Origin: an uncultured Actinomycetes bacterium
Lineage (GTDB): Bacteria; Actinomycetota; Thermoleophilia; Gaiellales; Gaiellaceae
Direction: 5' to 3'
Assembly (NCBI GenBank): GCA_963752845.1
Contig: CAVVZV010000003.1
Span: forward strand, 320,708-384,707
Length of the DNA: 64,000 nt
Shown: positions 1,445-58,694 of the stretch, one piece after another
How the letters are laid out: the number at the start of each line of letters is the position of its first letter
How positions within the stretch are numbered: position 1 is the first letter of the stretch
Notes under the pieces: model-generated
Seen by the model: only the letters and a program-made list of their open reading frames with translations
Database searches by the model: none
Told to the model about the DNA's origin: nothing
Made by a program: the position numbers and the translations under genes

Positions 1445-2980
<1,536 letters not shown>

Positions 2981-2983
<3 letters not shown>

Positions 2984-3177
2984 GACGTCGCTTGCGATGT
3001 CTCTGGAAGGCGCGGCCGTGAGACGTCGCTTGCGATGTCTCATTCAGGCCGTGCGGCTAAGGCATCGCTTGCGATGCCGTTTAGAGGGCATGCTGGCTTT
3101 GCCAGCGTGCCCGTTCCTTCTCCCGGACGGCCGTCTGCAATGACCGGTCGACACATTGGGAGCTGGGCGGTGCGGTC
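2981..3177 (+). repeat. Intercistronic modular stem-loop cassette, copy 1 (modules A, A, B, C, tail, SD)
   Basis: Module coordinates:
- Hairpin A GAGACGTCGC-TT-GCGATGTCTC at 2982-3003, and again at 3020-3041.
- Hairpin B GGCATCGC-TT-GCGATGCC at 3061-3078.
- Hairpin C GGGCATGCTGGC-TTT-GCCAGCGTGCCC at 3086-3112.
- Tail CGTCTGCAATGACCGGTCGACAC at 3132-3154.
The same modules recur at 6918, 18312 and 22611(-). Confidence 0.85.
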
Positions 3178-4404
3178 GTGAGCGCGAGCGGTGGTCTGCT
3201 CCCGCCTGACGTTCCGGATGCCGCTCCCAGCGTCGCCGCGCGGTTCGATCTCTACCAGCGGGCGGGCGGGATCATTACGCCGCTGCTCACGGCGCTCTTC
3301 GCCTTCTTCGTCGGGGGCCTCGTCGTCCTCGTAACCACCGGCAAGAACCCGCTCGACACGTACAGGGCGATCTTCGACGGAACCGGTCTCAACTGGCTGT
3401 TCCCGTGGGTGCGAGGCGAGGAGCGCGAGCTCGCCGCCCTGAATCTCCAACAGACCTTGATCTTGACGACGACGCTGATCCTGGCAGGCCTCGCCGTCGC
3501 ATTCGCTTTCCGGTGCGGCCTCTTCAACATCGGCGGTCAGGGTCAGTACATCGCCGGGATGGTCACAGCTGCCCAGGTCGGCATCTGGCTGCCGGACCTC
3601 GGGCACGTGCCTCACATGGTGCTCGCGGCCGGGGCGGGCGCTCTTGCTGGAGCGCTCTGGGCGGGGATCGCCGGGATCCTCAAGGCGACCGTCGGCGCCC
3701 ACGAGGTGATCACGACGATCATGCTGAACTGGACCGCGCTCTGGGTCGGCAGCTACCTCGTCGGCTTCGGTGGGCCGCTTCAGGACCCGGCGCAGGAGTT
3801 CGTGCCGGTGATGAAGGAGGTCTCGCAGGGAGCGAAGCTGAACGTCTGGTGGGGCGATCCCAGTGCGCAGGGCCTCCACATCGGGTTCTTCGTCGCCATT
3901 GCCGCGCTCATCGTGTTCTGGATCGTGCTCAACCGGACAACGCTCGGCTACCAGGTGCGAGCGGTCGGTTTCAACCCCGACGCGGCCAGCTACGGCGGGA
4001 TTAGCGTGGGTCGCAGCTACTTCCTCGCGATGGCGATCTCAGGTGCGTTCGCGGGCCTCGCGGGCAGCGTCGACATCCTCGGCTGGCTGTTCCGAGTCGA
4101 CCTTACGAGCATCCAGGTGTCGTCCACGATCGCGTTCATGGGGATCGCGGTCGCGCTACTCGGGCGGAACACGCCGGTGGGGATCTTCTTTGGGGCCCTC
4201 CTCTTCGGCGCGCTCCTGAACGGAACGTCGACTCGTAACCTCGACCCTGCCGTCTTCGAGCCCGAGCTTGCCGGCAACCTGACGCTGATCATCCAGGGGC
4301 TGGTCGTGCTCTTCGTCGGTGCCGATCTCTTGATCCTCTACCTCTGGCGCGCACGGCTCAGGCTCCGCCGGAAGCCGCCACCGGAGGTCGTGACGGAGCC
4401 GTGA
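3178..4404 (+). CDS. ABC transporter permease (BMP/nucleoside system, first subunit)
   Basis: 408-aa polytopic ORF with motif FRCGLFNIGGQGQY. GTGA start/stop overlap with the next gene at 4401-4404. Confidence 0.85.
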   Translation: MSASGGLLPPDVPDAAPSVAARFDLYQRAGGIITPLLTALFAFFVGGLVVLVTTGKNPLDTYRAIFDGTGLNWLFPWVRGEERELAALNLQQTLILTTTLILAGLAVAFAFRCGLFNIGGQGQYIAGMVTAAQVGIWLPDLGHVPHMVLAAGAGALAGALWAGIAGILKATVGAHEVITTIMLNWTALWVGSYLVGFGGPLQDPAQEFVPVMKEVSQGAKLNVWWGDPSAQGLHIGFFVAIAALIVFWIVLNRTTLGYQVRAVGFNPDAASYGGISVGRSYFLAMAISGAFAGLAGSVDILGWLFRVDLTSIQVSSTIAFMGIAVALLGRNTPVGIFFGALLFGALLNGTSTRNLDPAVFEPELAGNLTLIIQGLVVLFVGADLLILYLWRARLRLRRKPPPEVVTEP

Positions 4405-5630
4405 GCGTCGCGGCGGGCGTAGTCGAACGCGTGGGTGTCCGGATCGACCTCGCGAAGGTCCTCGGGATCGTCTCGATCGCCCTGGGGTTCCTTGCGTTCT
4501 GGGTCGCGCTGCCGCCGCTGACCACTCAGTCGGTCGCCGTCCCCGTCGCGCTCGGCGTCGGAGGCATCGCAGCGGGCCTTTGGTCCTGGCGTCAGGGTCA
4601 GACACGGCTGGGCTGGACCGGCGTCTGTGTCGCCTTGCTCGGGCTCCTGGGCGGGGTTTTCGCGACGCGCGCGGCCGAGGCCAACCTCGAGGTCGTGATC
4701 ACCTGGTCAGCCCTGACGGCGGCCACACTACGGTATGCGACTCCGCTGACTTTTGCTGCGATTGGCGGCCTGTTCTCCGAACGGAGCGGCGTCGTCAACA
4801 TCGGCCTCGAGGGAATGATGTTGATGGGCGCCTTCTTCGGGATCTACGGGGCTGACCGTACGAACTCCTGGGTCGCAGGCATCTTCATCGGCGCGGCCGC
4901 CGGCGCGGCGCTCGCGCTCGTTCACGCCTTCTTCTCTATCCACCTGCGCTCGGATCAGATCGTCAGCGGCACGGCAATCAACTTCCTCGCGCTCGGGCTG
5001 ACGGGGTATCTCTACATCGACCTCTACGGAACCGAGGGGACGGGTGAGATTCCGGCGGTGCCGGACGTCCACCTCGACTTCCTGGGGCGCATCCCGCCGG
5101 AAGGCCTGGGCAACTTCCTCGACCGGGCGTTCGGGCAGCTCAACCTGATGATCTGGCTCGCCCTCGCCACTGTCGTCCTCGCCTACATCGTCATCTTCAA
5201 GACCGCGATCGGGCTTCGGATCCGCGCCGTGGGGGAGCATCCGCGCGCCGCCGACACCGTCGGAATCTCCGTGTATGCCGTTCGCTACGCGGCCGTCACC
5301 CTCTCTGGCGCGCTCGCCGCGCTTGGTGGCGTCTACCTCTCGCTCGGGTTCGTCCACTCGTTCACCGAGAACATGACCGCCGGCCGAGGCTTCATTGCCC
5401 TGGCCGCGCTGATCTTCGGCAAGTGGCATCCGTTCGGCGCTCTCGGGGCGGCACTCCTATTCGGGTTCGCAAGCGCCGTCGCGCCTCGCCTCGAGAACGT
5501 GGAGAGCTGGGCGACCTACGGCACGCTCTTCCAGGCCCTTCCCTACGTGCTCACCCTGATCGCCGTCGCAGGGGTGATCGGACGCTCGATCCCGCCCGCC
5601 GCCATCGGGCGGGCGTACGAAAAGCAGTAG
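4401..5630 (+). CDS. ABC transporter permease (BMP/nucleoside system, second subunit)
   Basis: 409-aa polytopic ORF with motif FSERSGVVNIGLEGMML, typical of the partner permease. Confidence 0.85.
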   Translation: MSVAAGVVERVGVRIDLAKVLGIVSIALGFLAFWVALPPLTTQSVAVPVALGVGGIAAGLWSWRQGQTRLGWTGVCVALLGLLGGVFATRAAEANLEVVITWSALTAATLRYATPLTFAAIGGLFSERSGVVNIGLEGMMLMGAFFGIYGADRTNSWVAGIFIGAAAGAALALVHAFFSIHLRSDQIVSGTAINFLALGLTGYLYIDLYGTEGTGEIPAVPDVHLDFLGRIPPEGLGNFLDRAFGQLNLMIWLALATVVLAYIVIFKTAIGLRIRAVGEHPRAADTVGISVYAVRYAAVTLSGALAALGGVYLSLGFVHSFTENMTAGRGFIALAALIFGKWHPFGALGAALLFGFASAVAPRLENVESWATYGTLFQALPYVLTLIAVAGVIGRSIPPAAIGRAYEKQ

Positions 5631-5658: not shown

Positions 5659-6920
5659 GTGACCGGGCCGGACGAGGTCGAAAGGGCGCCCGCCGGCGAG
5701 GAGGCGTCGACGGTGGCTGCCCGGCTCGGCCGGTACCAGCAGGCCGGAGGCCTGGTGACCGCCCTGATCACCACGGTTGTCGCCTTTCTCCTGGCCGGAC
5801 TCGTGGTCGTTGCGACCACCGGGCGAACCCGCTCCCGGTCTACCGCGGAATCCTCGACGGCACCGGCCTCACCTGGCTTGTCCACTGGTTCGTCGACGTG
5901 CGGACGATTGGCGGGACGCACGACATCTATCCGACCGAGGCCGACGCGGTCGCGATCGCGGCGATCAATCTCCAGCAGACGCTGATCCTGACGACGACCC
6001 TGATCCTGACGGGACTCGCGGTCGCGTTCGCCTTCCGCTGCGGGCTCTTCAACATCGGCGGGCAGGGGCAGTACTTGGTGGGCGTCACGGTGGCGGTCGC
6101 GATCGGAGCTGAGCTCAGCGGCCTTCCTCGGGGGATCCACGTTCCGCTCGCGCTCGCCTGCGCCGTCCTTGCCGGCGCTGCCTGGGCGGGGATCGCAGGC
6201 CTCATGCGCGCCACCGTCGGCGCCCACGAAGTGATCACGACGATCATGCTCAACTGGATCGCCTTCTGGGTCGCGAGCTATCTCTTCAGCATCGGCGGCC
6301 CGCTCCAGAGCGACACGCAGCGCTCGGTCCCGATCTCGAACGATGTCGCCGACTCCGCCAAGCTGCACGTGCTCTGGGGCGGGGTTCAGGGCCTGCACAT
6401 CGGCTTTCTCCTCGCCCTCGGCGCCCTCGTTGTCTTCTGGGCGATCATGAACCGCTCGACGCTCGGCTTCGAGGTTCGTGCGGTCGGCTACAACCCCGAG
6501 GCTGCACGCTACGGCGGCATCAGCGTGGCCCGCAACTACTTCCTCGCGATGGCGATCGCCGGCGGGTTCGCGGGCCTTGCGGGCGCGATCGACCTGCTCG
6601 GTTGGCAGTACCGGTACGGCCAGATCGACGTCCAGCAGTCGGAGGTCGGCTTCGTCGGGATCGCGGTCGCCCTGCTCGGCCGCAACAAGGCACTCGGGAT
6701 CCTCTTCTCCGCGCTTCTATTCGGCGCCCTCCTGACCGGGACGAGCACCAGGAATCTCAACCCCGACATCTTCGATCCGGAGCTGGCCGGCAACCTGACG
6801 CTGATCATCCAGGGGCTCATCGTGCTCTTCGTCGGGGCCGATCTACTCGTCATCTCCGTCTGGAGGGCGCGGAAACGACTGCCGCTGCTGCGGCGTAAGC
6901 CGAAGGCGGTGGGCTCGTGA
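5659..6920 (+). CDS. ABC transporter permease, paralog of 3178..4404, with an apparent 1-nt frameshift near 5824
   Basis: ORF 5659..5985 (N-terminus ...VVATTG) and ORF 5898..6920 align end to end with the first permease. Shifting frame at ACCACCGGGCGAACCCG restores TTG-x-NPLPVYRGILDGTGL. NLQQTLILTTTLIL.GLAVAFAFRCGLFNIGGQGQY is shared with the first copy. Confidence 0.7.
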
Positions 6921-7017
6921 GACATCGCTTTCGATGTCTCTGTCAGGCCGTGCGGGCTTTGCTCGCGCGGCCGTCTGCAATGACCGGTCGACACGGTCGA
7001 AGCTCAGAGGTTCGGCT
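6918..7017 (+). repeat. Intercistronic modular stem-loop cassette, copy 2 (A, degenerate C, tail, SD)
   Basis: Module coordinates:
- Hairpin A GAGACATCG-CTTT-CGATGTCTC at 6919-6940.
- Degenerate C GCGGGC-TTT-GCTCGC at 6952-6966.
- Tail CGTCTGCAATGACCGGTCGACAC at 6972-6994.
- AGAGGTTCGGCT followed by GTG 7018. Confidence 0.8.
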
Positions 7018-8208
7018 GTGAGCTCGTGGACCCGTCGGATCGGATTCGCGGGCATCGGGATCGCGGCGCTCGGCGTTTGGCTGATGCTGCCGCCGGTCGG
7101 TGACGCGCTGCGCGACGCCACCGGGATCTACGAGGTCATTCCCGTCGCGCTCGGCATCTTCGCGATCGCAGCGGGGATCTGGGTCGTCAGCCGCGGCGAG
7201 CGGAAGGTCGGCTGGGCGGCGATCGGCTGCGGCGTGATCGGGATCGGCCTGGGCCTCGCGGCGGCGCAAGCGAGCGTGGCCGACAACGAGGCCGTGTTCG
7301 TCTGGTCGAGCCTGATCGCGGCCACGCTGCGCTGGGCGACGCCGCTGATCTTCGCCGCGATCGGCGGCATGTTCTCCGAGCGCAGCGGCGTGGCGAACAT
7401 CGCGCTCGAGGGCATGATGCTCGCGGGGGCGTTCTTCGGCATTTGGGGCGCCGTCCGCTTCGACCACTGGGCCATAGGCCTGCTGACTGCGATGGCGGCG
7501 GGTGGAGCGCTGGCCCTCGTCCACGCGTTCTTCTCGATCCACCTGCGTGCCGACCAGATCGTCAGCGGGACGGCGATCAACTTCCTGGCGCTGGGGCTGA
7601 CGGGCTACCTCTACATCGACATCTACGGCGACGAGGGCACGCCGACCGACCTCTCGACGATCCCCAACGTGCACCTCTCGTTCCTCGACGACGTGTATTT
7701 CCTCGGGCCGATCTTCGGGGACATGAACCTGATGATCTGGCTCGCCCTGGCGACGGTGGTCCTCTCCTGGGTCGTCCTCTTCAAGACCCCGATCGGGCTC
7801 CGCATCCGCTCCGTGGGGGAGCACCCGCGCGCGGCCGACACGGTCGGGATCTCGGTCTACAAGATTCGGTATGCCGCCGTCACCCTCTCGGGCGTGCTCG
7901 CCGCGCTCGGTGGCGCCTACCTCTCGATCGGGTTCGTCGGCTCGTTCGGCGAGAATATGACCGTGGGTAGAGGATTCATCGCGCTCGCGGCGCTGATCTT
8001 CGGGATGTGGAAGCCGTTCGGCGCCTTCGGCGCCGCGCTCCTCTTCGGCTTCTCGAGCGCGCTCGCCCGCTCGCTGCCGGAGTACTCCGAACAGGCTGCG
8101 CTTCTGTTCGAGACCCTGCCGTACGTCTTGACCCTGATCGCGGTCGGAGGATTGATCGGCCGCTCGATTCCTCCCGCCGCTATTGGCCGGCCTTACGAGA
8201 AGCAATAG
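7018..8208 (+). CDS. ABC transporter permease, paralog of 4401..5630
   Basis: Lies in the frame of ORF 6934..8208. Aligns with the 4401 protein (FSERSGVANIALEGMML; C-terminus RSIPPAAIGRPYEKQ against RSIPPAAIGRAYEKQ). GTG 7018 was chosen by alignment and by the upstream SD. Confidence 0.8.
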   Translation: MSSWTRRIGFAGIGIAALGVWLMLPPVGDALRDATGIYEVIPVALGIFAIAAGIWVVSRGERKVGWAAIGCGVIGIGLGLAAAQASVADNEAVFVWSSLIAATLRWATPLIFAAIGGMFSERSGVANIALEGMMLAGAFFGIWGAVRFDHWAIGLLTAMAAGGALALVHAFFSIHLRADQIVSGTAINFLALGLTGYLYIDIYGDEGTPTDLSTIPNVHLSFLDDVYFLGPIFGDMNLMIWLALATVVLSWVVLFKTPIGLRIRSVGEHPRAADTVGISVYKIRYAAVTLSGVLAALGGAYLSIGFVGSFGENMTVGRGFIALAALIFGMWKPFGAFGAALLFGFSSALARSLPEYSEQAALLFETLPYVLTLIAVGGLIGRSIPPAAIGRPYEKQ

Positions 8209-10751: not shown

Positions 10752-11303
10752 GTGAACTCGGCCGATAGCGTCTCGGGCGATGAGCGTCTACGCATCTTCT
10801 GCGGCCTCCGCCTGCCCAACGACGTCGTCGACCGGATCGAGGCCTGGCAGGCGGAGCATCTCCGCGACGGCAGGATCGTCCCCCGCGAGCATCTCCATGT
10901 CACGCTCGCCTTCCTCGGCGGCAGGCCGGCCGCCGAGCTGCCGTCGATCGCGGCAGCCCTCGAAGCAGCCGCGCGAGACGCCGAGGAGATCGTGTTCACG
11001 GCGCGCCGGTACCGCGAGACGCGCAGCGTCGGCATGCTCGTCCTCGACGATCCGACGGGGGAGGGCGGCCGGCTCGCCGCGCGGTTATTCGACGGCCTGG
11101 AGGCCCTCGGGGTCTACGAGCGCGAGCGTCGCGCATGGCTCCCGCACGTCACCGTTCTGCGGTTCCGGAGCCCGCCGCGGCTCGCCCCTCCCGTGCCCGA
11201 CCTCGGGGCCTTCAGTCCGTCCGACGCGGCGGTCTACCATTCGCGTCTGCGGCCGTCCGGTGCGCAGTACGCCGTACTCGAAACTGTTCTTCTAGGAGGT
11301 TGA
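10752..11303 (+). CDS. thpR: RNA 2',3'-cyclic phosphodiesterase (2H phosphoesterase, LigT/ThpR)
   Basis: In the frame of ORF 10347..11303. Two H-x-T motifs are present (HVTLAFLG and HVTVLRF). GTG 10752 was chosen as start; the longer ORF upstream is Arg/Pro-rich and unlikely to be coding. Confidence 0.7.
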
Positions 11304-17614: not shown

Positions 17615-18314
17615 GCAGGTTCGCCGGCTGTGCGACTACCACTTCGGCGTCGGTTCCGACGGCGTGCTCGAGGTCATCTCGACGAACAGTGCCCGGGCCG
17701 ACATCGTGATCTGGAACCCGGACGGCTCGACCGCCGAGCTCTCCGGCAACGGCACGCGCATCGCCGCCCGGTGGCTGGCACGGCGGAGCGGGGCGGAAAC
17801 GGTCAGGATCTCGGTCGGCCCCCGCGAAGTTGTCGCGCGCATGCGCGGCGGCCTTCAGGTCGAGATGGAGATGGGCCGAGTGGAGGTCGGCGATCCCGAG
17901 AGGCTCGACGTCGGCGACGAGCCCGTGGAGCTGACTCCGGCCTCGGTCGGAAACCCGCACGCAGTTGTGCAAAGAGAGCCCGATCGCGAGACGCTTCTAC
18001 GCCTCGGCCCGCTGATCGAGAACCACGAGCGATTCCCGGAGCGAACGAACGTCCAGCTTGTGCGCGTCGACGGTCCGAGTGATCTGAGCGTCGGCGTGTG
18101 GGAACGCGGGGCGGGGGAGACCCTCTCCTCCGGGACGAGCGCCGTCGCCTGTGCGGCGGTCGCCGTCGCCCGCGGGTGGTGCACGAGCCCGGTGACCGTT
18201 CACCTGTCAGGCGGCGACCTCGTCGTCGAGCTTGACGACGACTGGAATGCGCGACTGACCGGACCGGCGCAGGAGATCTTCATCGGCGAGACGGCCGAGG
18301 AGTTCGGAGCGTGA
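17532..18314 (+). CDS. dapF: Diaminopimelate epimerase
   Basis: MRFSKWHGLGNDYLLV... in the frame of ORF 17205..18314, with SGNGTR and SGTSA active-site regions. Confidence 0.9.
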   Translation: MRFSKWHGLGNDYLLVQRADLDEPLTPEQVRRLCDYHFGVGSDGVLEVISTNSARADIVIWNPDGSTAELSGNGTRIAARWLARRSGAETVRISVGPREVVARMRGGLQVEMEMGRVEVGDPERLDVGDEPVELTPASVGNPHAVVQREPDRETLLRLGPLIENHERFPERTNVQLVRVDGPSDLSVGVWERGAGETLSSGTSAVACAAVAVARGWCTSPVTVHLSGGDLVVELDDDWNARLTGPAQEIFIGETAEEFGA

Positions 18315-18387
18315 GACAACGCTTGCGTTGTCTCCTTCAGCCCGTGCGGCTAAGGCATCGCTTGCGATGCCGCTTGGAGGTTCAGGC
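18312..18387 (+). repeat. Intercistronic modular stem-loop cassette, copy 3 (A, B, SD)
   Basis: Hairpin A GAGACAACGC-TT-GCGTTGTCTC at 18313-18334. Linker CTTCAGCCCGTGCGGCTAA. Hairpin B GGCATCGC-TT-GCGATGCC at 18354-18371. GGAGGTTCAGGC followed by GTG 18388. Confidence 0.85.
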
Positions 18388-19568
18388 GTGAGGTTCGCCC
18401 GCCGGCTCGACCAAGTGCCGCCGTACTTGTTCGCGGAGCTGGAGCGCAAGGTCTCCGCGAAGCAGCGAAAGGGGATCGACGTGATCAGCCTCGGGATCGG
18501 CGATCCCGATCTGCCGACCCCCGAGGTGGTCGTAGAGGCGGCCGCCGCTGCGCTGCGCGACCCCGGCACTCATCAGTACCCGAGCAACCAGGGCAGCCTG
18601 GAGTTCCGCGAGGCCGTCGCCGGCTTCTACCGCGAGCGCTTCGGCGTCGAGCTCGACCCGGCCTCGGAGGTGATGCCGGTGCTAGGCGGCAAGGAGGCCG
18701 TCGGGCACATCGCGATGGCGTGCCTCGACCCGGGAGATCTCTGCCTCAGCCCCGAGCCCGGCTATCCGCCGTACACGTCCGGTCCGGTCTTCTCCGGCGC
18801 CGAGGTGCACTACCTGCCCCTGACCGAGGAGAACCATTTCTTCCCGGAGCTCGGAGCGATCCCGGACGAGATCGCGCGACGCGCCAACCTCCTCTACCTC
18901 GACTACCCGAACAATCCCACCGGCGCGATCGTCCCCGATGGCGCCTTCGGGCAAGCCGTCGCCTTTGCCCGGCGAGCACGAACTGATCGTCGTCCACGAC
19001 AACGCCTACTCGGAGATCACTTTCGACGGCTACGTCGCGCCGAGCTTCCTCGAGACGCCGGGAGCCAAGGAGGTCGGGGTCGAGATCTTCTCGCTCTCGA
19101 AGGGCTGGAACATGACCGGCTGGCGCTGCGGGCTCGTCGCCGGGAACGCCGAGCTCATCGAGCGCTATCGGCAGCTGAAGACGAATCTGGACTCGGGCCT
19201 GTTCGAGGCGCTCCAGCGCGCAGCGGTGGTCGCGTTGACCGACGCAGCGGGACTTCCCTCGGCAGATGTCGGAGGTCTACCAGCGACGGCGCGACCTGCT
19301 GGTCGAGGCGCTCGCGCAGATCGGGCTCGACGTCGAGCCTCCGAAGGCGACGCCGTACTTCTGGGTGCGCGTGCCGGAGGGACACACGTCCGCGTCGTTC
19401 GCATCGCTCGTGCTCGATCAGGCGAACGTGGTCGTCTCGCCCGGGCCGGGCTACGGTCCGAGCGGCGAGGGATTCGTCCGGCTGTCGTTGACTGTCCCTG
19501 ACGAGCGGCTCGAGGAGGCCGTGCGACGAATCGAGAGCTCGTTGCGCGCGTCCATAATTCAGGCGTGA
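18388..19568 (+). CDS. Class I/II aminotransferase, LL-diaminopimelate aminotransferase-like, with two apparent frameshifts (~18970, ~19248)
   Basis: [16 protein letters not shown]...[14 protein letters not shown], then YPNNPTG. It continues in ORF 18938..19501 ([32 protein letters not shown]) and ORF 19266..19568. It sits adjacent to dapF. Confidence 0.8.
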
Positions 19569-21858: not shown

Positions 21859-22610
21859 CTAGGTGTACCTGCCTCCTCGGGTCCTGGCTCGCGAGGCGGA
21901 GACCGCATGGGCCTCGGCTTCGAGCGCATCCGCGAGCGGATCGAGCTCGTCGCCTCGCTGCCGGTTCGATGCGCCAGGGCCTCCGCGAGGAGCCAGTCGG
22001 CCAGCCACGGATTCCGAGGCAAGAGCGGCCCGTGGAGGTACGTCCCGATTGCTCGGCCGACGCGGCAGCCTTCGAAGCCGCTCTCGCCGTCATTGCCGAA
22101 CCCCGCGATGACCCGGCCCAGCGGCTCAGCTCCGTCGTCGAGGATCGTCCGGCCGGCGTGGTTCTCGAACCCGGCGAGCGTGCGCCGCCGCCCAGGCATG
22201 AGCTCGCACTCGAGCAGCACGTCGCCGATCATCCGCCGCTCGCCGGCCACCGTGTGGAGCGGGAGGAGTCCGATCCCGGGCAGCTCGTCCCCGCTTCGCT
22301 CCCGGTAGAAGCGCCCGAGCAGCTGGTAGCCGCCGCAGACCGCGAGCACCGCGGCGCCGCCCGCCACCGCCTCGACGAGACCCTCCTTGCCGGCCAGGTC
22401 ACGCGCGACGAGCGCCTGCTCCGGTCCTGGCCGCCGCCGATGTAGTAGAGGTCGTGCGCGCCGGGCTCGACCGGATCGTTCATCCCGATCGCGGCGACCT
22501 CCAAGCTCGTGCCCGCGCCAGGCCGCCCGCCTGGCGAGCACGGCGATGTTGCCGCGATCGGCGTAGATGTTGAGGTAGCTGGGGTAGAGATGGCCGACGC
22601 GGATCTTCAT
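21859..22610 (-). CDS. gatD: Lipid II isoglutaminyl synthase glutaminase subunit GatD (CobB/CobQ-like GATase), with about three apparent frameshifts (~22500, ~22423, ~21953)
   Basis: MKIRVGHLYPSYLNIYADRGN, AVCGGYQLLG, TYLHGPLLPRNP. The segment EVAAIGMNDPVEPGAHDLYYIGGGQDR lies in ORF 22229..22504. The C-terminus DELDPLADALEAEAHAV is restored in another frame, with stop at 21859-21861. Confidence 0.8.
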
Positions 22611-22770
22611 CGCCGAACCTCCTGACGGACAGCGTATCGACCGGTCGTTTCAGACGCCCGCGCAGGCAGGGACGGCGGGCACGCTGGCAAAGCCAGCATG
22701 CGCTCGAGACGGCATCGCAAGCGATGCCTGAGCTGCACGGGCTGAAGGCGACACCGCAAGCGGCGTCTCA
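22611..22770 (-). repeat. Intercistronic modular stem-loop cassette, copy 4 (A, B, C, tail, SD), in sense with murT-gatD
   Basis: The reverse complement reads ATGAGACGCCGC-TT-GCGGTGTCGCC, TTCAGCCCGTGCAGCTCA, GGCATCGC-TT-GCGATGCC (22711-22728), GCGCATGCTGGC-TTT-GCCAGCGTGCCC (22677-22703), CGTCTGAAACGACCGGTCGATAC (22634-22656), then CAGGAGGTTCGGCG-ATG (gatD start). Confidence 0.85.
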
Positions 22771-24145
22771 TGCCGCCTGCTCCCAGTAGGGCCGGGCGAA
22801 ACCGCGCTCGGTGACAATGCGGCGCAGTCCGAGCATCGCCGTGTACGTCGGGATCACGAACAACTCGCTTCCGCTCGGCGTCAGCTCGAGGCCGCGGTCC
22901 AGCGCTCGCCCGAGGTCCGGCTCCACTTCGATCGCGCCCTCGTCGAACCCCGCGTACTTGAAGCGCAGGGCGAGCTCGGCGGCGCGCTGACCGGTCACGA
23001 CGACACGCTCGAGACGCTCGAGCAGGGGCTCGAAATCGACGTCCCAGATCCACGAGACGTCGCGGCCGTCCGCGATCTCGTCGTTGAGCGCGATCAGGGC
23101 CCGGCGAGGCGCACCGCCGGCGACGAGCGTCCGGACGACCTCGTTCGCGCCGGCCGGATTCTTGACGAGCAGCATCAGCACCGTCCGCTCGCCGATGCGC
23201 AGACGCTCGAACCGCCCAAACGCGGCCGTGAAGCGCTCCAGGCCCGTTTTGATCTCGTCGCGCGACGCCCCGAGCACACGCGCCAGCGCTGCCGCGGCCA
23301 GCGCGTTGTAGACGTTGTAGAGCCCGGGGAGACGCAGCCGCACAGGCATCGATCCTTCGTCGTCGACCAGATCGAACGAGACCGCTTCCAGGCCCGTGTA
23401 GCTCGATCGACCGCGCGGTGAGGTCGAGCGCCGGACGGGCATGACCGCAGGCGGGGCAGCGGTAGTCGCCGAGGTGCCCGACGTATGCCGCCGCGTAGTC
23501 GTAGGGCGTGCCGCAGCGCAGGCACCACTTCGAGTCCGCGGCGTGCTGGAGCTCAGGCGCGGCCCGTCGCGGGTCATCCAAGCCGAAGACGATGCTGCTC
23601 GGACGGTCGCGCGCCAGGTCGCCCACCTGTGGATCGTCGCCGTTGACGACGAGCTCCGTGCCGTCGCCGAGCTCCGCCACGGCCCGGCGCCAGCGCTCGG
23701 CGACGAGCTCGAGCTCGCCGTAGCGGTCGAGCTGGTCGCGGAAGAGGTTGCCCAGGCAGAGCGCACGTGGGCGGACCCGACGGGCGACGTCGGGAAGCGC
23801 GGCCTCGTCGACCTCGAACAGGCCGAGCTCGGCCTCCCGGGCCGAGAGCAGCGTGGAAGCGACTCCCGAGATCAGGTTCGCTCCGGAGCTGTTGTGGGCG
23901 AGCCGCACCCGACCCTCGAGGATCTCGGCGACCATCGCAGTCGTCGTCGTCTTGCCGTTGGTGGCCGAGACGAGGGCCGCTCCCAGGGGGAGCCGCGCCG
24001 CCAGGCGCTCGACCGCCTCGGGCGCGAGGAACGTGAGCACCTTGCCCGGCACGGTCGTTCCACCGCCCGTTCGCGCGAGCCGTGACAGGCCTCCGGCCGC
24101 GCGCGCCGCGGCGACTCCGGCGGTTAGCGGAAGGCGGAGACGCAC
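22768..24145 (-). CDS. murT: Lipid II isoglutaminyl synthase MurT (Mur-ligase family), with one apparent frameshift (~23392)
   Basis: SATNGKTTT P-loop and a Cys4 ribbon CLRCGTPYDY...YRCPACG (ORF 22607..24145). The C-terminal half lies in ORF 22768..23766 (LPGLYNVYNALAAAA..., DUF1727-like end). Its stop is the TGA that opens the repeat. Confidence 0.85.
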
Positions 24146-24240: not shown

Positions 24241-24954
24241 ATGGCGCGAAGACCTGCGCGCGAGCTGCTGGAGGGCATCGACCGCGACGCGCTGGCCCGC
24301 TTCCAAGCCGGAATCCGGAAGCGCTACTCGGACGAGGACATCCTCGAGCAGCTCATCGACTCCGCCCGACGGTTGGGACGCTCGCCGTCGATGCGAGAGT
24401 TCACCGCCGACCCGGAGACCACGGTGCACCCGCAGACGGTGATCGAGCACTTTGGTAGCTGGAACGCTGCCAAGCGGGCCGCCGGGCTGGTGCCGCGCCG
24501 GTTCGCGACACGCGAGGAGCTCCTACGACTCCTGCGCGAGCTGGGAGAGACCCTCGGCCGCCCGCCGACGGCGCGGGACCTCGACGAGCATCGGCGCTCG
24601 ATGCCGTCGAAGTCCCTCTACTGGCACACGTTCGGTTCGCTCACGAAGGCTCTCCGTGAAGCCGGCTTCGACGTGCCGGTGGGGGAGGAACGGCTCGAGC
24701 GGGCAGTCGACCAGGGAACCGAGCTCGCCCTCGAGCTCGGCCACCTTCCGAAGTTCCAGGAGTGGGCCGCGGCGCGCAAAGAGGACCCGTCGCTCCTCAC
24801 CGAGTGGCAGGTGTACCGAATGTTCGACGTCCGCCGCGGCGCCTGGTCGACGTTCCAGTTCCTCATCCGGGAACGGCTCGTCGAAGACGGCTACGAGATC
24901 GGGCGAGACGGAAAGGTCTCAGCCAAGCGCGGCAAGCGCCGTCAGCAAGCGTAG
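24241..24954 (+). CDS. Hypothetical protein built from three homing-endonuclease-associated (HNH_repeat-like) repeats, with no nuclease domain
   Basis: Three ~50-aa repeats of the type LG(R/H)xP(S/T)xxEF...FGSWxxAxxxAG: RLGRSPSMREF..HFGSWNAAKRAAGL, TLGRPPTARDL..TFGSLTKALREAGF, and ELGHLPKFQEW...GAWSTFQFL. Confidence 0.55.
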   Translation: MARRPARELLEGIDRDALARFQAGIRKRYSDEDILEQLIDSARRLGRSPSMREFTADPETTVHPQTVIEHFGSWNAAKRAAGLVPRRFATREELLRLLRELGETLGRPPTARDLDEHRRSMPSKSLYWHTFGSLTKALREAGFDVPVGEERLERAVDQGTELALELGHLPKFQEWAAARKEDPSLLTEWQVYRMFDVRRGAWSTFQFLIRERLVEDGYEIGRDGKVSAKRGKRRQQA

Positions 24955-56231: not shown

Positions 56232-57017
56232 GCAGTTCCCTCCGGGGGTCGAGATGATCGTGCCGACGCGCTCCCCGAGCGCAACCCGCCTGATGTTGCC
56301 CTCGGCGAGCGCGAAGACGTAGATCGGGAGCCCATTGTCCATGCACAGCGAGAGCGCCGTCGTGTCCATCACGCGCAATCCGCGCTCGATCGCCTGAAGG
56401 TGGGTCAGCTCGGGGAGCAGCTCGGCATCGGGATCGTGGCGGGGATCCCCTTCGTGCACGCCCTCGACGGCGTGCTTGGCCATCAGGATCGCCTCGGCGC
56501 CGATCTCCAGTGCCCGCAGCGCGGCGGCGGTGTCGGTGGTGAAGAACGGGTTGCCGGTGCCGGCGGCGAAGATGACCACGCGCCCCTTCTCGAGGTGGCG
56601 GATCGCCCGCCGCCGGATGTACGGCTCGGCCACCTCGGAGACCTGGATCGCCGACATGACGCGCGTGTGGAGCTCGCGGCGCTCGAGGACGTCCTGAAGG
56701 GCGAGCGCGTTCAGGACCGTGGCGAGCATGCCCGCGTAGTCCGCAGTCGCCCGGTCCATCCCCTCCGCGGCCGCGGCCATGCCGCGGTAGATGTTCCCGG
56801 CCCCGACCACGATCGCGATCTCGACGCCGCGCTCGTGCAGCTCGGCGATCTCCTCGGCGATCTGCTCGACCTCGTGCAGGTCGAGCCCGTACTCCTTGTC
56901 GCCCATCAGGGCCTCGCCGGAGAGCTTCAGCAGGACCCGCCGGAAGGCCGGCCTGCCTGCCGTCTCTGCGTCAGCCGGCAAGGGCGTAGCGCTCGTACTC
57001 GAGGACTTCGAGCTCAT
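56228..57017 (-). CDS. pyrH: UMP kinase (3' end inferred; no in-frame stop as sequenced)
   Basis: [34 protein letters not shown]. As written, the frame runs straight into frr. Removing one C from the C5 run (56244-56248) gives ...STPEGTA-TGA overlapping the frr ATG. Confidence 0.85.
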
Positions 57018-57768
57018 GCTCCTCGAGCGCCTTGGCGACGGTCTTGCCCGTGTCGTGGATCCACTCCTGGTCGGGCAGGACGGTCTGGCCGAAGAACCGC
57101 TTCGAGAGCATCCCCTCGACGATCTTCTCGCGATGCTCCTCGGGGCGGGACTGCACCTCCGGCAGCTTCTCGAGGATCTCGAGCTCGGTCGCGAGGTCCT
57201 CCTCGGAGATCTCGTCGCGGTGGGCGTACAGCGGCGCCGCGAAGGCGATGTGCATCGCCAGCAGCCGTGCGACCTCCGCCGGCCCCTTCGCCCGCACGAG
57301 CACGCCGATCTTGTTCGCCGGCGGGTGGACGTAGGCCGCGAGCACTTCGTCGTCGCCCTGCTTCTCGAACCGCGCCGCGCCGCGACGACGATGTTCTCGC
57401 CGAGCTTGCCGACGAGCTCCTGCCGCTCCTCCTCGAGCCGGTCGGCCGCGTCCGGGCCGTCCTGCTCGACGGCGTCGAGAACCTTCTCGCGCGAACGCCC
57501 GGAACTCGTCGTTCTTCGAGACCGGCTCGGTCTCGCAGCCGACGGCGACGAGTGTCCCGACGCGCTCGTCGACCCGCGCGAGGACGATGCCCTCGGTCGT
57601 CTCGCGGCCGGCGCGCTTGCCGGCCTCTGCCATCCCGCGCTCGCGCAGGAGCCTCTTGGCGGCGTCGAGGTCGCCCTCGGTCTCCTGGAGCGCGCGCTTG
57701 GCGTCCATCATCCCCGCGCCGGTCTCGTCGCGGAGCTGCTTGACGAGTGTCGCCGGAATCTCAGCCAT
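56971..57768 (-). CDS. tsf: Elongation factor Ts, with two apparent frameshifts (~57482, ~57385)
   Basis: [27 protein letters not shown]... The middle segment [33 protein letters not shown] lies in another frame. SD GGAGGAG before ATG 57768. Confidence 0.9.
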
Positions 57769-58694
57769 CGGCCTTCTCCTCCGTCTGCTCCGTCGGCCTC
57801 CGCGGCCTCGGTCTCGGCGGCGCTCTCCGCCTGTGCCACGGGCTCGCTGCTCGGCCGGCGGCTCGTCTGCAGCGCGGCTCGGCTCCGGCGCTCCTCGGCC
57901 GGCTCGGGCTCGGCCTCCGGCGCCGGGCTCGGGCTCGGCCTCCGGCGCCGCCTCGGGCTCCTCGGGCTGGCCGTTGGCCGCGGCAGCCGCCTCGAACTCC
58001 TCCGGCCGCACCTGCGACTTGCCCGCCTCGATCGCCTCGGCGATCGCGCGGATCACGAGGCTGCACGAGCGGATCGCGTCGTCGTTGCCGGGGATGACGT
58101 AGTCGGCCTCGTCCGGATCGCAGTTCGTGTCGACGAGGCCGATGATCGGGAGGCCGAGGCGACGCGCCTCGCGCACCGCGATCTGCTCCTTGCGGAGATC
58201 GATCGACGAAGACTGCGTCGGGCTGGCGCTTCAGGTCGGCGACCCCGCCGAGATTCGCCTCGAGCTTCTCGAGCTCGCTGAGCATCGTCAGCCGCTCCTT
58301 GGCCGGCAGCAGGTCGAGCTGGCCTTCCTCGTTCAAGCGCCGGAGCTCGTGCATGCGCTCGATGCGCCCGGACATCGTCCGCCAGTTCGTGAGCAGGCCG
58401 CCGAGCCAGCGGTGGTTGACGTACGGCATGCCGACCCGCGTGGCCTCCTCGGCGATCGAGTCCATCGCCTGCTTCTTGGTGCCGACGAACAGCATCGTCC
58501 CGCCTCGGCTCGCCGAGGTCGCGGGCGAACTCGTAGGCGTCGTCGAGCAGCTGCGCGGTCTGCTGGAGGTCGATGATGTAGATGCCGCCGCGCTCCGTGA
58601 AGATGAAGCGGCGCATCTTCGGGTTCCAGCGTCGGGTCTGGTGGCCGAAGTGGACGCCGGCCTCCAGCAGGTCCCTCATCGAGACGACTGACAT
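57761..58694 (-). CDS. rpsB: 30S ribosomal protein S2, with at least two apparent frameshifts (~58515, ~58200) and an unresolved acidic tail
   Basis: [27 protein letters not shown] (ORF 58053..58694), [18 protein letters not shown]...NHRWLGG (ORF 57761..58495), and [22 protein letters not shown] (ORF 56971..58176). The exact stop is uncertain. Confidence 0.9.

Follow-up and report, generated by a model that had tools for sequence, protein, structure and literature searches.

A 64,000-nucleotide (nt) stretch of DNA from an uncultured member of the Gaiellaceae (contig CAVVZV010000003.1, assembly GCA_963752845.1, positions 320,708 to 384,707 of the forward strand; the whole stretch is called the window below) contains four copies of a modular hairpin element, each lying between two genes and running in their direction. 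By Pfam, the gene pairs are an ABC ATPase and a BPD_transp_2 permease (copy 1), two permeases (copy 2), a DAP epimerase (dapF) and a class I-II aminotransferase (copy 3), and MurT_C (murT) and GATase_3 (GatD-like, gatD) proteins (copy 4). An earlier examination of the same DNA (the original prediction) had described four intergenic cassettes at these places, with these gene pairs and this polarity, and all four were recovered; the positions were right, and the exact ends were corrected to RTGA tetranucleotides (2980-3181, 6917-7021, 18311-18391, and 22771-22607 on the minus strand). Here, we report that the cassettes belong to a dispersed repeat family, consist of hairpin units nested in one another, duplicated an RTGA stop/start overlap when they inserted, and keep a reading frame open from one side to the other. 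All functional statements are drawn from sequence. The copies and their parts are as follows.

Copy 1, 2980-3181, plus strand: from the ABC ATPase stop to the permease start; a short remnant, then a full nested element.
Copy 1 remnant, ahead of the full element: hairpin A, a Shine-Dalgarno-like GGAAGG, and GTGA.
2982-3003, plus: first A hairpin of copy 1, GAGACGTCGC-TT-GCGATGTCTC, with a CUUG-type loop and one G.U pair; its initial bases overlap the upstream TGA stop.
3020-3041, plus: second A hairpin of copy 1.
3047-3056, plus: outer stem, 5′ arm (GGCCGTGCGG); RNAalifold, nine copies, compensatory changes.
3060-3079, plus: hairpin B (AGGCATCGCTTGCGATGCCG).
3086-3112, plus: hairpin C, the second hairpin of the inner unit (12-bp stem, 3-nt loop).
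3123-3132, plus: outer stem, 3′ arm (CCGGACGGCC); RNAalifold.
3133-3154, plus: tail GTCTGCAATGACCGGTCGACAC; an ATGA stop/restart at 3140-3143 resets the frame.
Copy 2, 6917-7021, plus strand: between two permease genes; a single un-nested unit with GTGA at both ends.
Copy 2 parts: hairpin A, 6919-6940; uninterrupted second hairpin, 6946-6972; tail, 6973-6994; Shine-Dalgarno-like AGAGG.
Copy 3, 18311-18391, plus strand: dapF to the aminotransferase gene; GTGA at both ends.
Copy 3 parts: hairpin A, 18313-18334; outer 5′ arm, 18340-18349; hairpin B, 18353-18372; GGAGG, 18376-18380.
Copy 4, 22607-22771, minus strand: murT to gatD; a full nested element with ATGA at both ends.
Copy 4, 5′ parts: hairpin A, 22769-22748; outer 5′ arm, 22742-22733; hairpin B, 22729-22710; hairpin C, 22703-22677.
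Copy 4, 3′ parts: outer 3′ arm, 22665-22656; tail, 22655-22634; GGAGG, 22622-22618.

The shared, ordered modules of the original prediction (hairpin A, linker, hairpin B, hairpin C, tail) are common to the copies, and chance predicts no such sharing. Pattern counts were compared with dinucleotide-preserving shuffles of the window: hairpin B (GGCATCGCTTGCGATGCC, 18-mer) has 3 exact sites and, with up to 3 mismatches, 10 matches versus 0.17 expected; hairpin A has 5 sites and, at the same tolerance, 10 matches versus 0.49 expected; the tail pattern occurs at 3 sites and hairpin C exactly at 2, with 0 expected for either; and the linker has 3 exact sites. A covariance model built from 110 related generic units was run unfiltered over all 64 kb and found only four sites (78, 67, 65, and 42 bits), with A hairpins additionally scoring 27, 21, and 20. 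The next match (19 bits, E = 0.02) lies inside a hydantoinase gene; four is therefore the full count for the window. Against Rfam, a tRNA alone passes the gathering threshold in the window, the best match of the cassette reaches 16.7 bits against a threshold of 37, and permissive thresholds returned nothing relevant.

An RNAalifold consensus of nine full-length copies (window and related metagenome-assembled genomes [MAGs]) revealed an outer stem, whose 5′ arm is the former linker (GGCCGTGCGG) and whose 3′ arm lies just before the tail, with hairpins B and C enclosed. The stem is backed by compensatory changes: pair 36:121 is GC in seven copies and CG in two, and pair 43:114 is GC in eight and AU in one. 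Copy 2 is the outer unit unsplit (hairpin A, then GGCCGTGCGGGC-TTT-GCTCGCGCGGCC, then the tail). Because the outer stem encloses B and C and copy 2 shows it uninterrupted, the cassette is a unit nested in a unit; that is, the full element is a two-hairpin unit with a second unit (B and C) inserted in the loop of its second hairpin. What had been taken for a degenerate hairpin C in copy 2 is in fact this uninterrupted outer hairpin, whose 5′ arm appears in the other copies as the linker. Hairpin A represents a diverged form of the B type, and the building block of the family is a segment of ∼65 to 110 nt in which a short GCUUGC-loop hairpin, of type B or A, is followed by a 12-bp hairpin that covaries and by the tail GTCTGMAATGACCGGTCGA. 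Copy 3 looks like the full element minus the segment between two GGAGG motifs. No terminal inverted repeats were found, only internal hairpins.

Insertion is documented by an empty site. Loci outside the window, from related MAGs or metagenomes, carry L-numbers here, and one of them, the Actinomycetota MAG contig L002, encodes DapF and aminotransferase proteins 92 to 95% identical to those of the window. Its dapF/aminotransferase junction is empty, with a single GTGA (...GAGTTCCA GTGA GATTCGCC; also written ...GAGGAGTTCCA GTGA GATTCGCCCGCC), and the same place in the window reads GTGA, 73 nt, GTGA; copy 3 is therefore a 77-nt insertion with GTGA duplicated. The permease1/permease2 junction at 4401-4404, paralogous to the site of copy 2, is an intact GTGA, and the murT/gatD site of copy 4 has a filled ortholog in L002. 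At eight related sites, the purine of RTGA is the same on both sides (ATGA/ATGA or GTGA/GTGA), and L001 has a 13-nt duplication containing GTGA. Among the 4-nt stop/start overlaps of the window, 4 are occupied and ∼8 unoccupied, an occupancy of about one third. The unoccupied ones, five of which are RTGAG, are listed here.

Unoccupied overlaps: 4402, 19566, 28967, 34599, 38324, 53043, and 54936, plus a TTGA at 11301.

Every window copy opens with an RTGA in which TGA is the upstream stop and closes with an RTGA in which RTG is the downstream start. The two junctions are connected in each copy by a stop-free frame or by a chain of mini-open reading frames (mini-ORFs) joined by RTGA, so the original prediction, by which no ORF explains the cassettes, was half right: each contains a stop-free bridging frame.

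Copy 1, chain: 2980-3021 (13 amino acids [aa]), 3018-3143 (41 aa), and 3140-3181 (13 aa), joined by GTGA and ATGA.
Copy 2, frame: 6917-7021 (34 aa).
Copy 3, frame: 18311-18391 (26 aa).
Copy 4, frame: 22771-22607, minus strand (54 aa).

The frame was followed through 11 independent A-type or nested sites (window copies 1 to 4, L001, L003 to L006, L008, and L021), a small sample in part chosen by the search pattern itself. The final mini-ORF terminates on the downstream start at all 11, and at 9 of them an intact chain leads there from the upstream stop. Neither a change in length (variants of 78, 102, and 162 nt) nor the number of codons that follow the tail (6, 8, or 9) disturbs this; in L008, +1 and −1 indels compensate each other, and copy 1 and L006 depend on the stop/restart at the ATGA of the tail. 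The tail motif GTCTGAAATGACC stops or passes all three frames beside one ATG, and A-type copies carry GGAGG 7 to 8 nt ahead of the rebuilt start. Generic units whose upstream stop stands in an RTGA context are bridged in 9 of 13 cases, antisense units included; in L025 (antisense), the GTGA sites are 113 nt apart (2 modulo 3). In copy 2, a 9-bp hairpin (AGCTCAGAG, 7001-7009, with CTGTGAGCT, 7016-7024) covers the Shine-Dalgarno-like motif and the GTG of the downstream permease, an arrangement by which initiation would depend on a ribosome coming from the mini-ORF.

Our best explanation, to which we assign a probability of about 0.65, is that the cassettes are copies of a mosaic hairpin element of Gaiellaceae, inserted (mobile or formerly mobile) and non-autonomous, which would persist in stop/start overlaps by rebuilding both signals and keeping ribosome traffic continuous. 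The A-type subfamily occupies the 4 nt (RTGA, usually RTGAG) in which the stop and start of translationally coupled genes overlap, and RTGA then flanks the insert on both sides, the left one keeping the upstream stop and the right one the downstream start. The element supplies a GGAGG Shine-Dalgarno motif 7 to 8 nt before the rebuilt start, and a stop-free frame spans the distance from the left RTG to the right TGA. As we picture it, the tail motif (TGAAATGA or CAATGA) would end or pass ribosomes of other frames and restart them in the one whose end falls on the downstream start. Ribosomes that finish the upstream gene would thus re-initiate, traverse the insert, and reach the downstream start; since they could cross it, coupling would be kept and insertion would be nearly neutral. 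The sense orientation would follow from the polarity of the target and from the survival of only some insertions.

Several points weigh against this explanation. Part of the frame conservation goes back to descent from a common master copy, and only ∼4 to 6 length variants serve as independent tests. The 5′ link is lost at two sites, L003 (CTGA) and L006 (a 2-nt insertion leading to an early TAA). The element's own GGAGG could by itself start downstream translation, with no need for bridging. Antisense copies, and those between convergent genes, conserve the tail just as well, and translation is therefore not what its ATGA evolved for. That the mini-ORFs are translated and that insertion is nearly neutral is inferred. 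Among ∼60 window ORFs (64 kb of the genome), Pfam found no transposase (Y1 included), reverse transcriptase, or integrase. Lastly, the window seems indel-prone, with the aminotransferase, murT, a permease, and rpsB-tsf looking frameshifted; single-base errors are possible within a cassette, yet the four cassettes agree with nine copies from other assemblies. A control in which 1 to 2 nt were inserted did not discriminate, because the ATGA of the tail lets other chains re-phase.

Among known elements, this one most resembles the interspersed repetitive units of mycobacteria (MIRUs) in the way it works, and its behavior thus has a precedent. As described in the parts of PMC3184786 and PMC12548453 (the latter citing Supply et al. 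1997) that treat them, MIRUs are intra-operon repeats of 40 to 100 bp with tetranucleotide direct repeats at filled sites and with an internal ORF whose ends overlap the neighboring stop and start at −4 spacing; their insertion is thought there to be tolerated since coupling is kept. Both are repeats of 40 to 100 nt or more in an actinobacterial lineage, located between operon genes in the orientation of these genes (4/4 window copies, 11/11 A-type or nested sites). Both show a tetranucleotide repeated at filled sites and single at empty ones (here RTGA on both sides, and one GTGA in L002 and at 4401-4404) and an internal ORF with −4 overlaps (here complete at 9/11 sites, with the 3′ end at 11/11). 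Tandem copies and the lack of a known transposase are common to both as well. There are differences as well: the host belongs to Thermoleophilia and not to Mycobacterium, the Gaiellaceae element consists of nested two-hairpin units with strong covariation, it has its own GGAGG and a frame-resetting ATGA motif, and members of its wider family also lie antisense, at tRNA genes, or between convergent genes, long target duplications being frequent among them. Given the Gaiellaceae host, membership in the MIRUs by descent is unlikely.

That wider family was sampled in two scans. Species-representative genomes, queried with the linker plus hairpin B, gave six loci, all in Gaiellaceae or unclassified Actinomycetota MAGs, and the 20-mer of hairpin B matched at least 120 metagenome contigs, mostly from soil as judged by JGI/GenBank record names. 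Both scans used hairpin B patterns, and the relatives sampled are therefore the B-bearing ones; genes in these loci were called with a simple codon-bias (codon log-odds) caller, by which frameshifted genes are still missed. The second hairpin of generic units has 12 bp and is variable in sequence with compensatory changes, 10 of its 17 predicted pairs covarying in 110 units (one pair is CG in 49, AU in 33, GC in 15, and UA in 11), and the units usually end in one of two tails. Hairpin B also covaries in copies that were not chosen by its sequence. Wobble pairs are one-sided (77 G.T versus 3 A.C in 90 distinct stems, with the same bias in the nested-fold alignment), which indicates that one particular strand does the folding. 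A search of the literature for the sequence of the element and for repeats of Thermoleophilia or Gaiella found no description, and the family itself appears not to have been described before.

Orientation separates the subfamilies. Elements with an A hairpin and nested B and C lie in sense at a co-directional junction at 11 of 11 independent sites (window and related MAGs), and the proposed specialization for intra-operon junctions holds for them. It fails for the generic unit: of ∼130 further copies among the matches listed, 31 are in sense between co-directional genes, 32 antisense, 17 between convergent genes, and 5 between divergent genes. Where the upstream gene is in sense, its stop codon very often falls in the first bases of the element, T(G/A)AGGCATC or TAGGCATC.

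Units are repeatedly nested in the second-hairpin loops of other units, in both orientations. In L077 (1980-2130), the inner unit is reversed inside the second-hairpin loop of an outer tail-type unit, so nesting is not orientation-specific. Tandem arrays of two or three units with a period of ∼100 to 130 nt were seen at L025 (250-640), L126 (1170-1480), L038 (5690-6010), L108 (430-760), and L123 (3400-3700), each period comprising one element and a duplicated target piece; recombination between these long direct repeats could either multiply the element or remove it with precision. Four generic units stand directly upstream of intact tRNA genes (L120, 1300-1511; L098, 9143-9330; L124, 3150-3407; L075, 4329-4520), namely Pro-GGG twice, Ser-GGA, and Gln-TTG, with a duplicated 5′-half tRNA fragment flanking the other side of each unit. 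In both L120 and L098, the second hairpin is followed by 12 nt that repeat, in inverted form, the tRNA sequence across the insertion point.

Target direct repeats of at least 12 nt, anchored at the 5′ end of the element, accompany 18 of 95 copies, a few of them tandem element units, versus 1 of 95 with a control anchor, and the direct repeats at the flanks measure between 4-5 nt and 49 nt. In L086 and L025, the last 29 to 30 nt of the upstream gene are duplicated, Shine-Dalgarno motif and GTGA included; at the orthologous junction, L004 (GTGA), L024 (GTGA), and L026 (TAATG) have a simple overlap. As read from the sequence, L113 and L102 seem to carry twice the 3′ ends in which convergent genes overlap, and L120 duplicates 43 to 49 nt of tRNA-Pro. 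The duplicated piece is in each case what both neighbors need. Either duplications of variable length form at insertion, or long ones always form and are recognizable only where both copies are constrained. The motif GTCTAA/GTTTAG after the second hairpin was considered as a 3′ target duplication and rejected, as it belongs to the element.

Classical DDE or HUH transposition does not predict such duplications. The way in which the family integrates may have no described counterpart among small bacterial repeats: a process that is templated, target-primed, or based on replication could leave the target duplications of 4-5 to at least 45 nt, although we hold this idea only tentatively. In its favor, the duplications rebuild the shared parts of the neighbors (stop/Shine-Dalgarno/start, convergent 3′ ends, or a tRNA's 5′ half), the junctions share microhomology with the CTNAGG end of the element, and some of them carry an inverted target copy. 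If such a process is real, the A-type subfamily would amount to a portable cassette for translational coupling, equipped with a Shine-Dalgarno motif, a frame reset, and a stop/start overlap of its own.

A more conventional route, compatible with the best explanation given above, is that the unit is a REP- or PATE-like single-strand DNA unit moved in trans by an HUH/Y1 transposase (RAYT or an IS200/IS605-type TnpA), the enzyme nicking next to hairpin B and the unit being inserted 3′ of a short target motif. Strand-specific hairpins that tolerate G.T and avoid A.C, a conserved NNAG directly 5′ of hairpin B, targets resembling the 5′ end of the element (CTNAGG or RTGAG), insertion in the loops of other units in either orientation, and the absence of terminal inverted repeats would all agree with it. 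We nevertheless think it unlikely: the GTAG tag is present in just 3 of 123 aligned copies, units are direct tandem or nested and not inverted REPIN doublets, and many copies have target direct repeats of 4 to 49 nt, of which HUH single-strand transposition leaves none. The proposed search for RAYT- or IS200/IS605-type TnpA genes was run on the ∼60 ORFs of the 64-kb window only and found no Y1 transposase.

The suggested affiliation with REP/BIME- or PATE-like repeats stands insofar as this is a dispersed mosaic hairpin family; beyond that it is not supported, the GTAG tag, alternating orientation, and terminal inverted repeats being absent. Like REP/BIMEs, it consists of G+C-rich extragenic hairpins of 20 to 40 nt combined in mosaic clusters, both favor co-directional and convergent intergenic regions, and the hairpins of both are strand-asymmetric. 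The loops of REP hairpins are known insertion targets. Unlike REPs and REPINs, it has neither a GTAG nor a CGTC tag, the bases before hairpin B being NNAG; unlike BIMEs, with which it shares the mosaic character, its units form direct tandems or nests and not alternating or inverted doublets. In contrast to REP/RAYT systems, target duplications are present and no RAYT was found among the window ORFs. For IS200/IS605-derived PATEs, which are marked by subterminal hairpins, insertion 3′ of a fixed tetra- or pentanucleotide, and no target duplication, the signs are mixed: the hairpins are strand-specific and the target resembles the 5′ end, but target duplications are present. CGTC-tagged REPs were also considered and rejected, because the AT pairs at the stem start and the CCA tail given for them in the relevant part of PMC3733652 do not fit.

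The cassettes could instead be selected cis-acting RNA structures in operon mRNAs, acting as processing sites, barriers to 3′-5′ exonucleases, or attenuators that set expression ratios. REP elements in some Escherichia coli operons and Correia elements in Neisseria play such mRNA-level roles, and the very stable fold of copy 1 (−119.5 kcal/mol, z = −6.9), the CUUG-type loops, the G.U wobbles on the top strand of the element (77 G.T versus 3 A.C), which is the mRNA strand in the window copies, and the sense orientation of all 11 A-type copies would suit this. As a general account it is improbable. The same units are antisense as often as sense (32 versus 31), so a strand-specific fold cannot be a general mRNA function, and the absence of copy 3 from its close relative L002 makes that copy dispensable, which also counts against an RNA role. 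Units sit in unrelated operons, upstream of tRNA genes, and where convergent genes end; no Rfam family matches; and T-tract terminators are not above chance (hairpin C of copy 1 is the only one to score, weakly, as an intrinsic terminator, and the counts equal those of shuffles). Sense copies may have an RNA-level role, but such a role cannot explain a family that is antisense half the time and yet folds on one strand only, an asymmetry that fits a single-stranded DNA stage or the element's own transcript.

Miniature inverted-repeat transposable elements cotranscribed with genes (Correia/NEMIS, ERIC/IRU, YPAL) are likewise small and non-autonomous, often abut or overlap stop codons, and fold in mRNA; the Gaiellaceae element differs from them in having no terminal inverted repeats and no fixed TA or short target duplication. 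Rickettsia palindromic elements (RPEs) share with it that some copies are read in frame in a neighboring ORF (L053, L101), but RPEs sit in coding regions, where they add peptide segments, and the Gaiellaceae element is usually at a gene junction. At L053 (3990-4150) and L101 (5200-5360), the junction is ATGA and the downstream ORF reads in frame through the antisense element, for an N-terminal extension of ∼45 aa if translation begins at the overlap; the orthologous site in L030 (11030-11095) is empty. Nesting, the frame-reset tail, and long target duplications set the Gaiellaceae element apart among elements of a known kind.

It is very improbable that the segments are small genes for arginine-/cysteine-rich peptides (MRRRLRCL...RLRHRLRCR...), even though the frames are open, their starts overlap the upstream stop, and the peptide motif recurs. 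The G+C content at third codon positions is 0.54 to 0.67 in the mini-ORFs versus 0.84 to 0.92 in flanking genes, rare codons are used, indels change the peptide wholly while the hairpins stay (L008), stem substitutions are compensatory, antisense copies encode unrelated peptides, and a search of 5.8 billion predicted proteins returned nothing for the 54-aa mini-ORF peptide. An origin of the copies by segmental duplication of larger local blocks, one of the findings named with the original prediction as refuting it, can be set aside: copies 1 and 2 do lie in the region of a duplicated permease pair (71 to 81% identity), but at non-equivalent positions, with an intact GTGA (4401-4404) as the paralog of the copy 2 site, copies 3 and 4 have unrelated flanks, and the element is present at other loci in other MAGs.

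If the explanation by insertion into stop/start overlaps is right, the element would be an apparently independent second case of a selfish repeat colonizing such overlaps while keeping coupling, an idea that, in the account given in part of PMC12548453, had rested on MIRUs alone. With 4 of ∼12 four-nt overlaps occupied, elements of this kind could shape operon architecture in abundant uncultured soil actinobacteria. Compact bridging cassettes with a frame-reset motif would offer natural material for studies of termination-reinitiation, and the movement of the wider family, with its long variable target duplications and nesting in its own hairpin loops, poses a mechanistic question. Repeats of this type can also confuse gene calling and assembly in Gaiellales MAGs.

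Some other features of the window were recorded. The BPD_transp_2 permease pair is tandemly duplicated (3178-5630 versus 5659-8208; 71 to 81% nucleotide identity), and the first gene of the second pair has a frame change near 5659-5898 (a frameshift or pseudogene). The C-terminus of the aminotransferase (18388-19565) is in a different frame (19263-19565), the N- and C-terminal parts of murT (22607-24145, minus region) are in separate ORFs, and the end of rpsB and tsf lie within one open frame (56974-58203, minus strand). These frameshifted or fused housekeeping genes suggest an indel-prone assembly or real pseudogenes. Just beyond murT, an ORF at 24262-24951 has two HNH_repeat domains (homing-endonuclease associated) and is the sole window ORF of mobile-DNA character.

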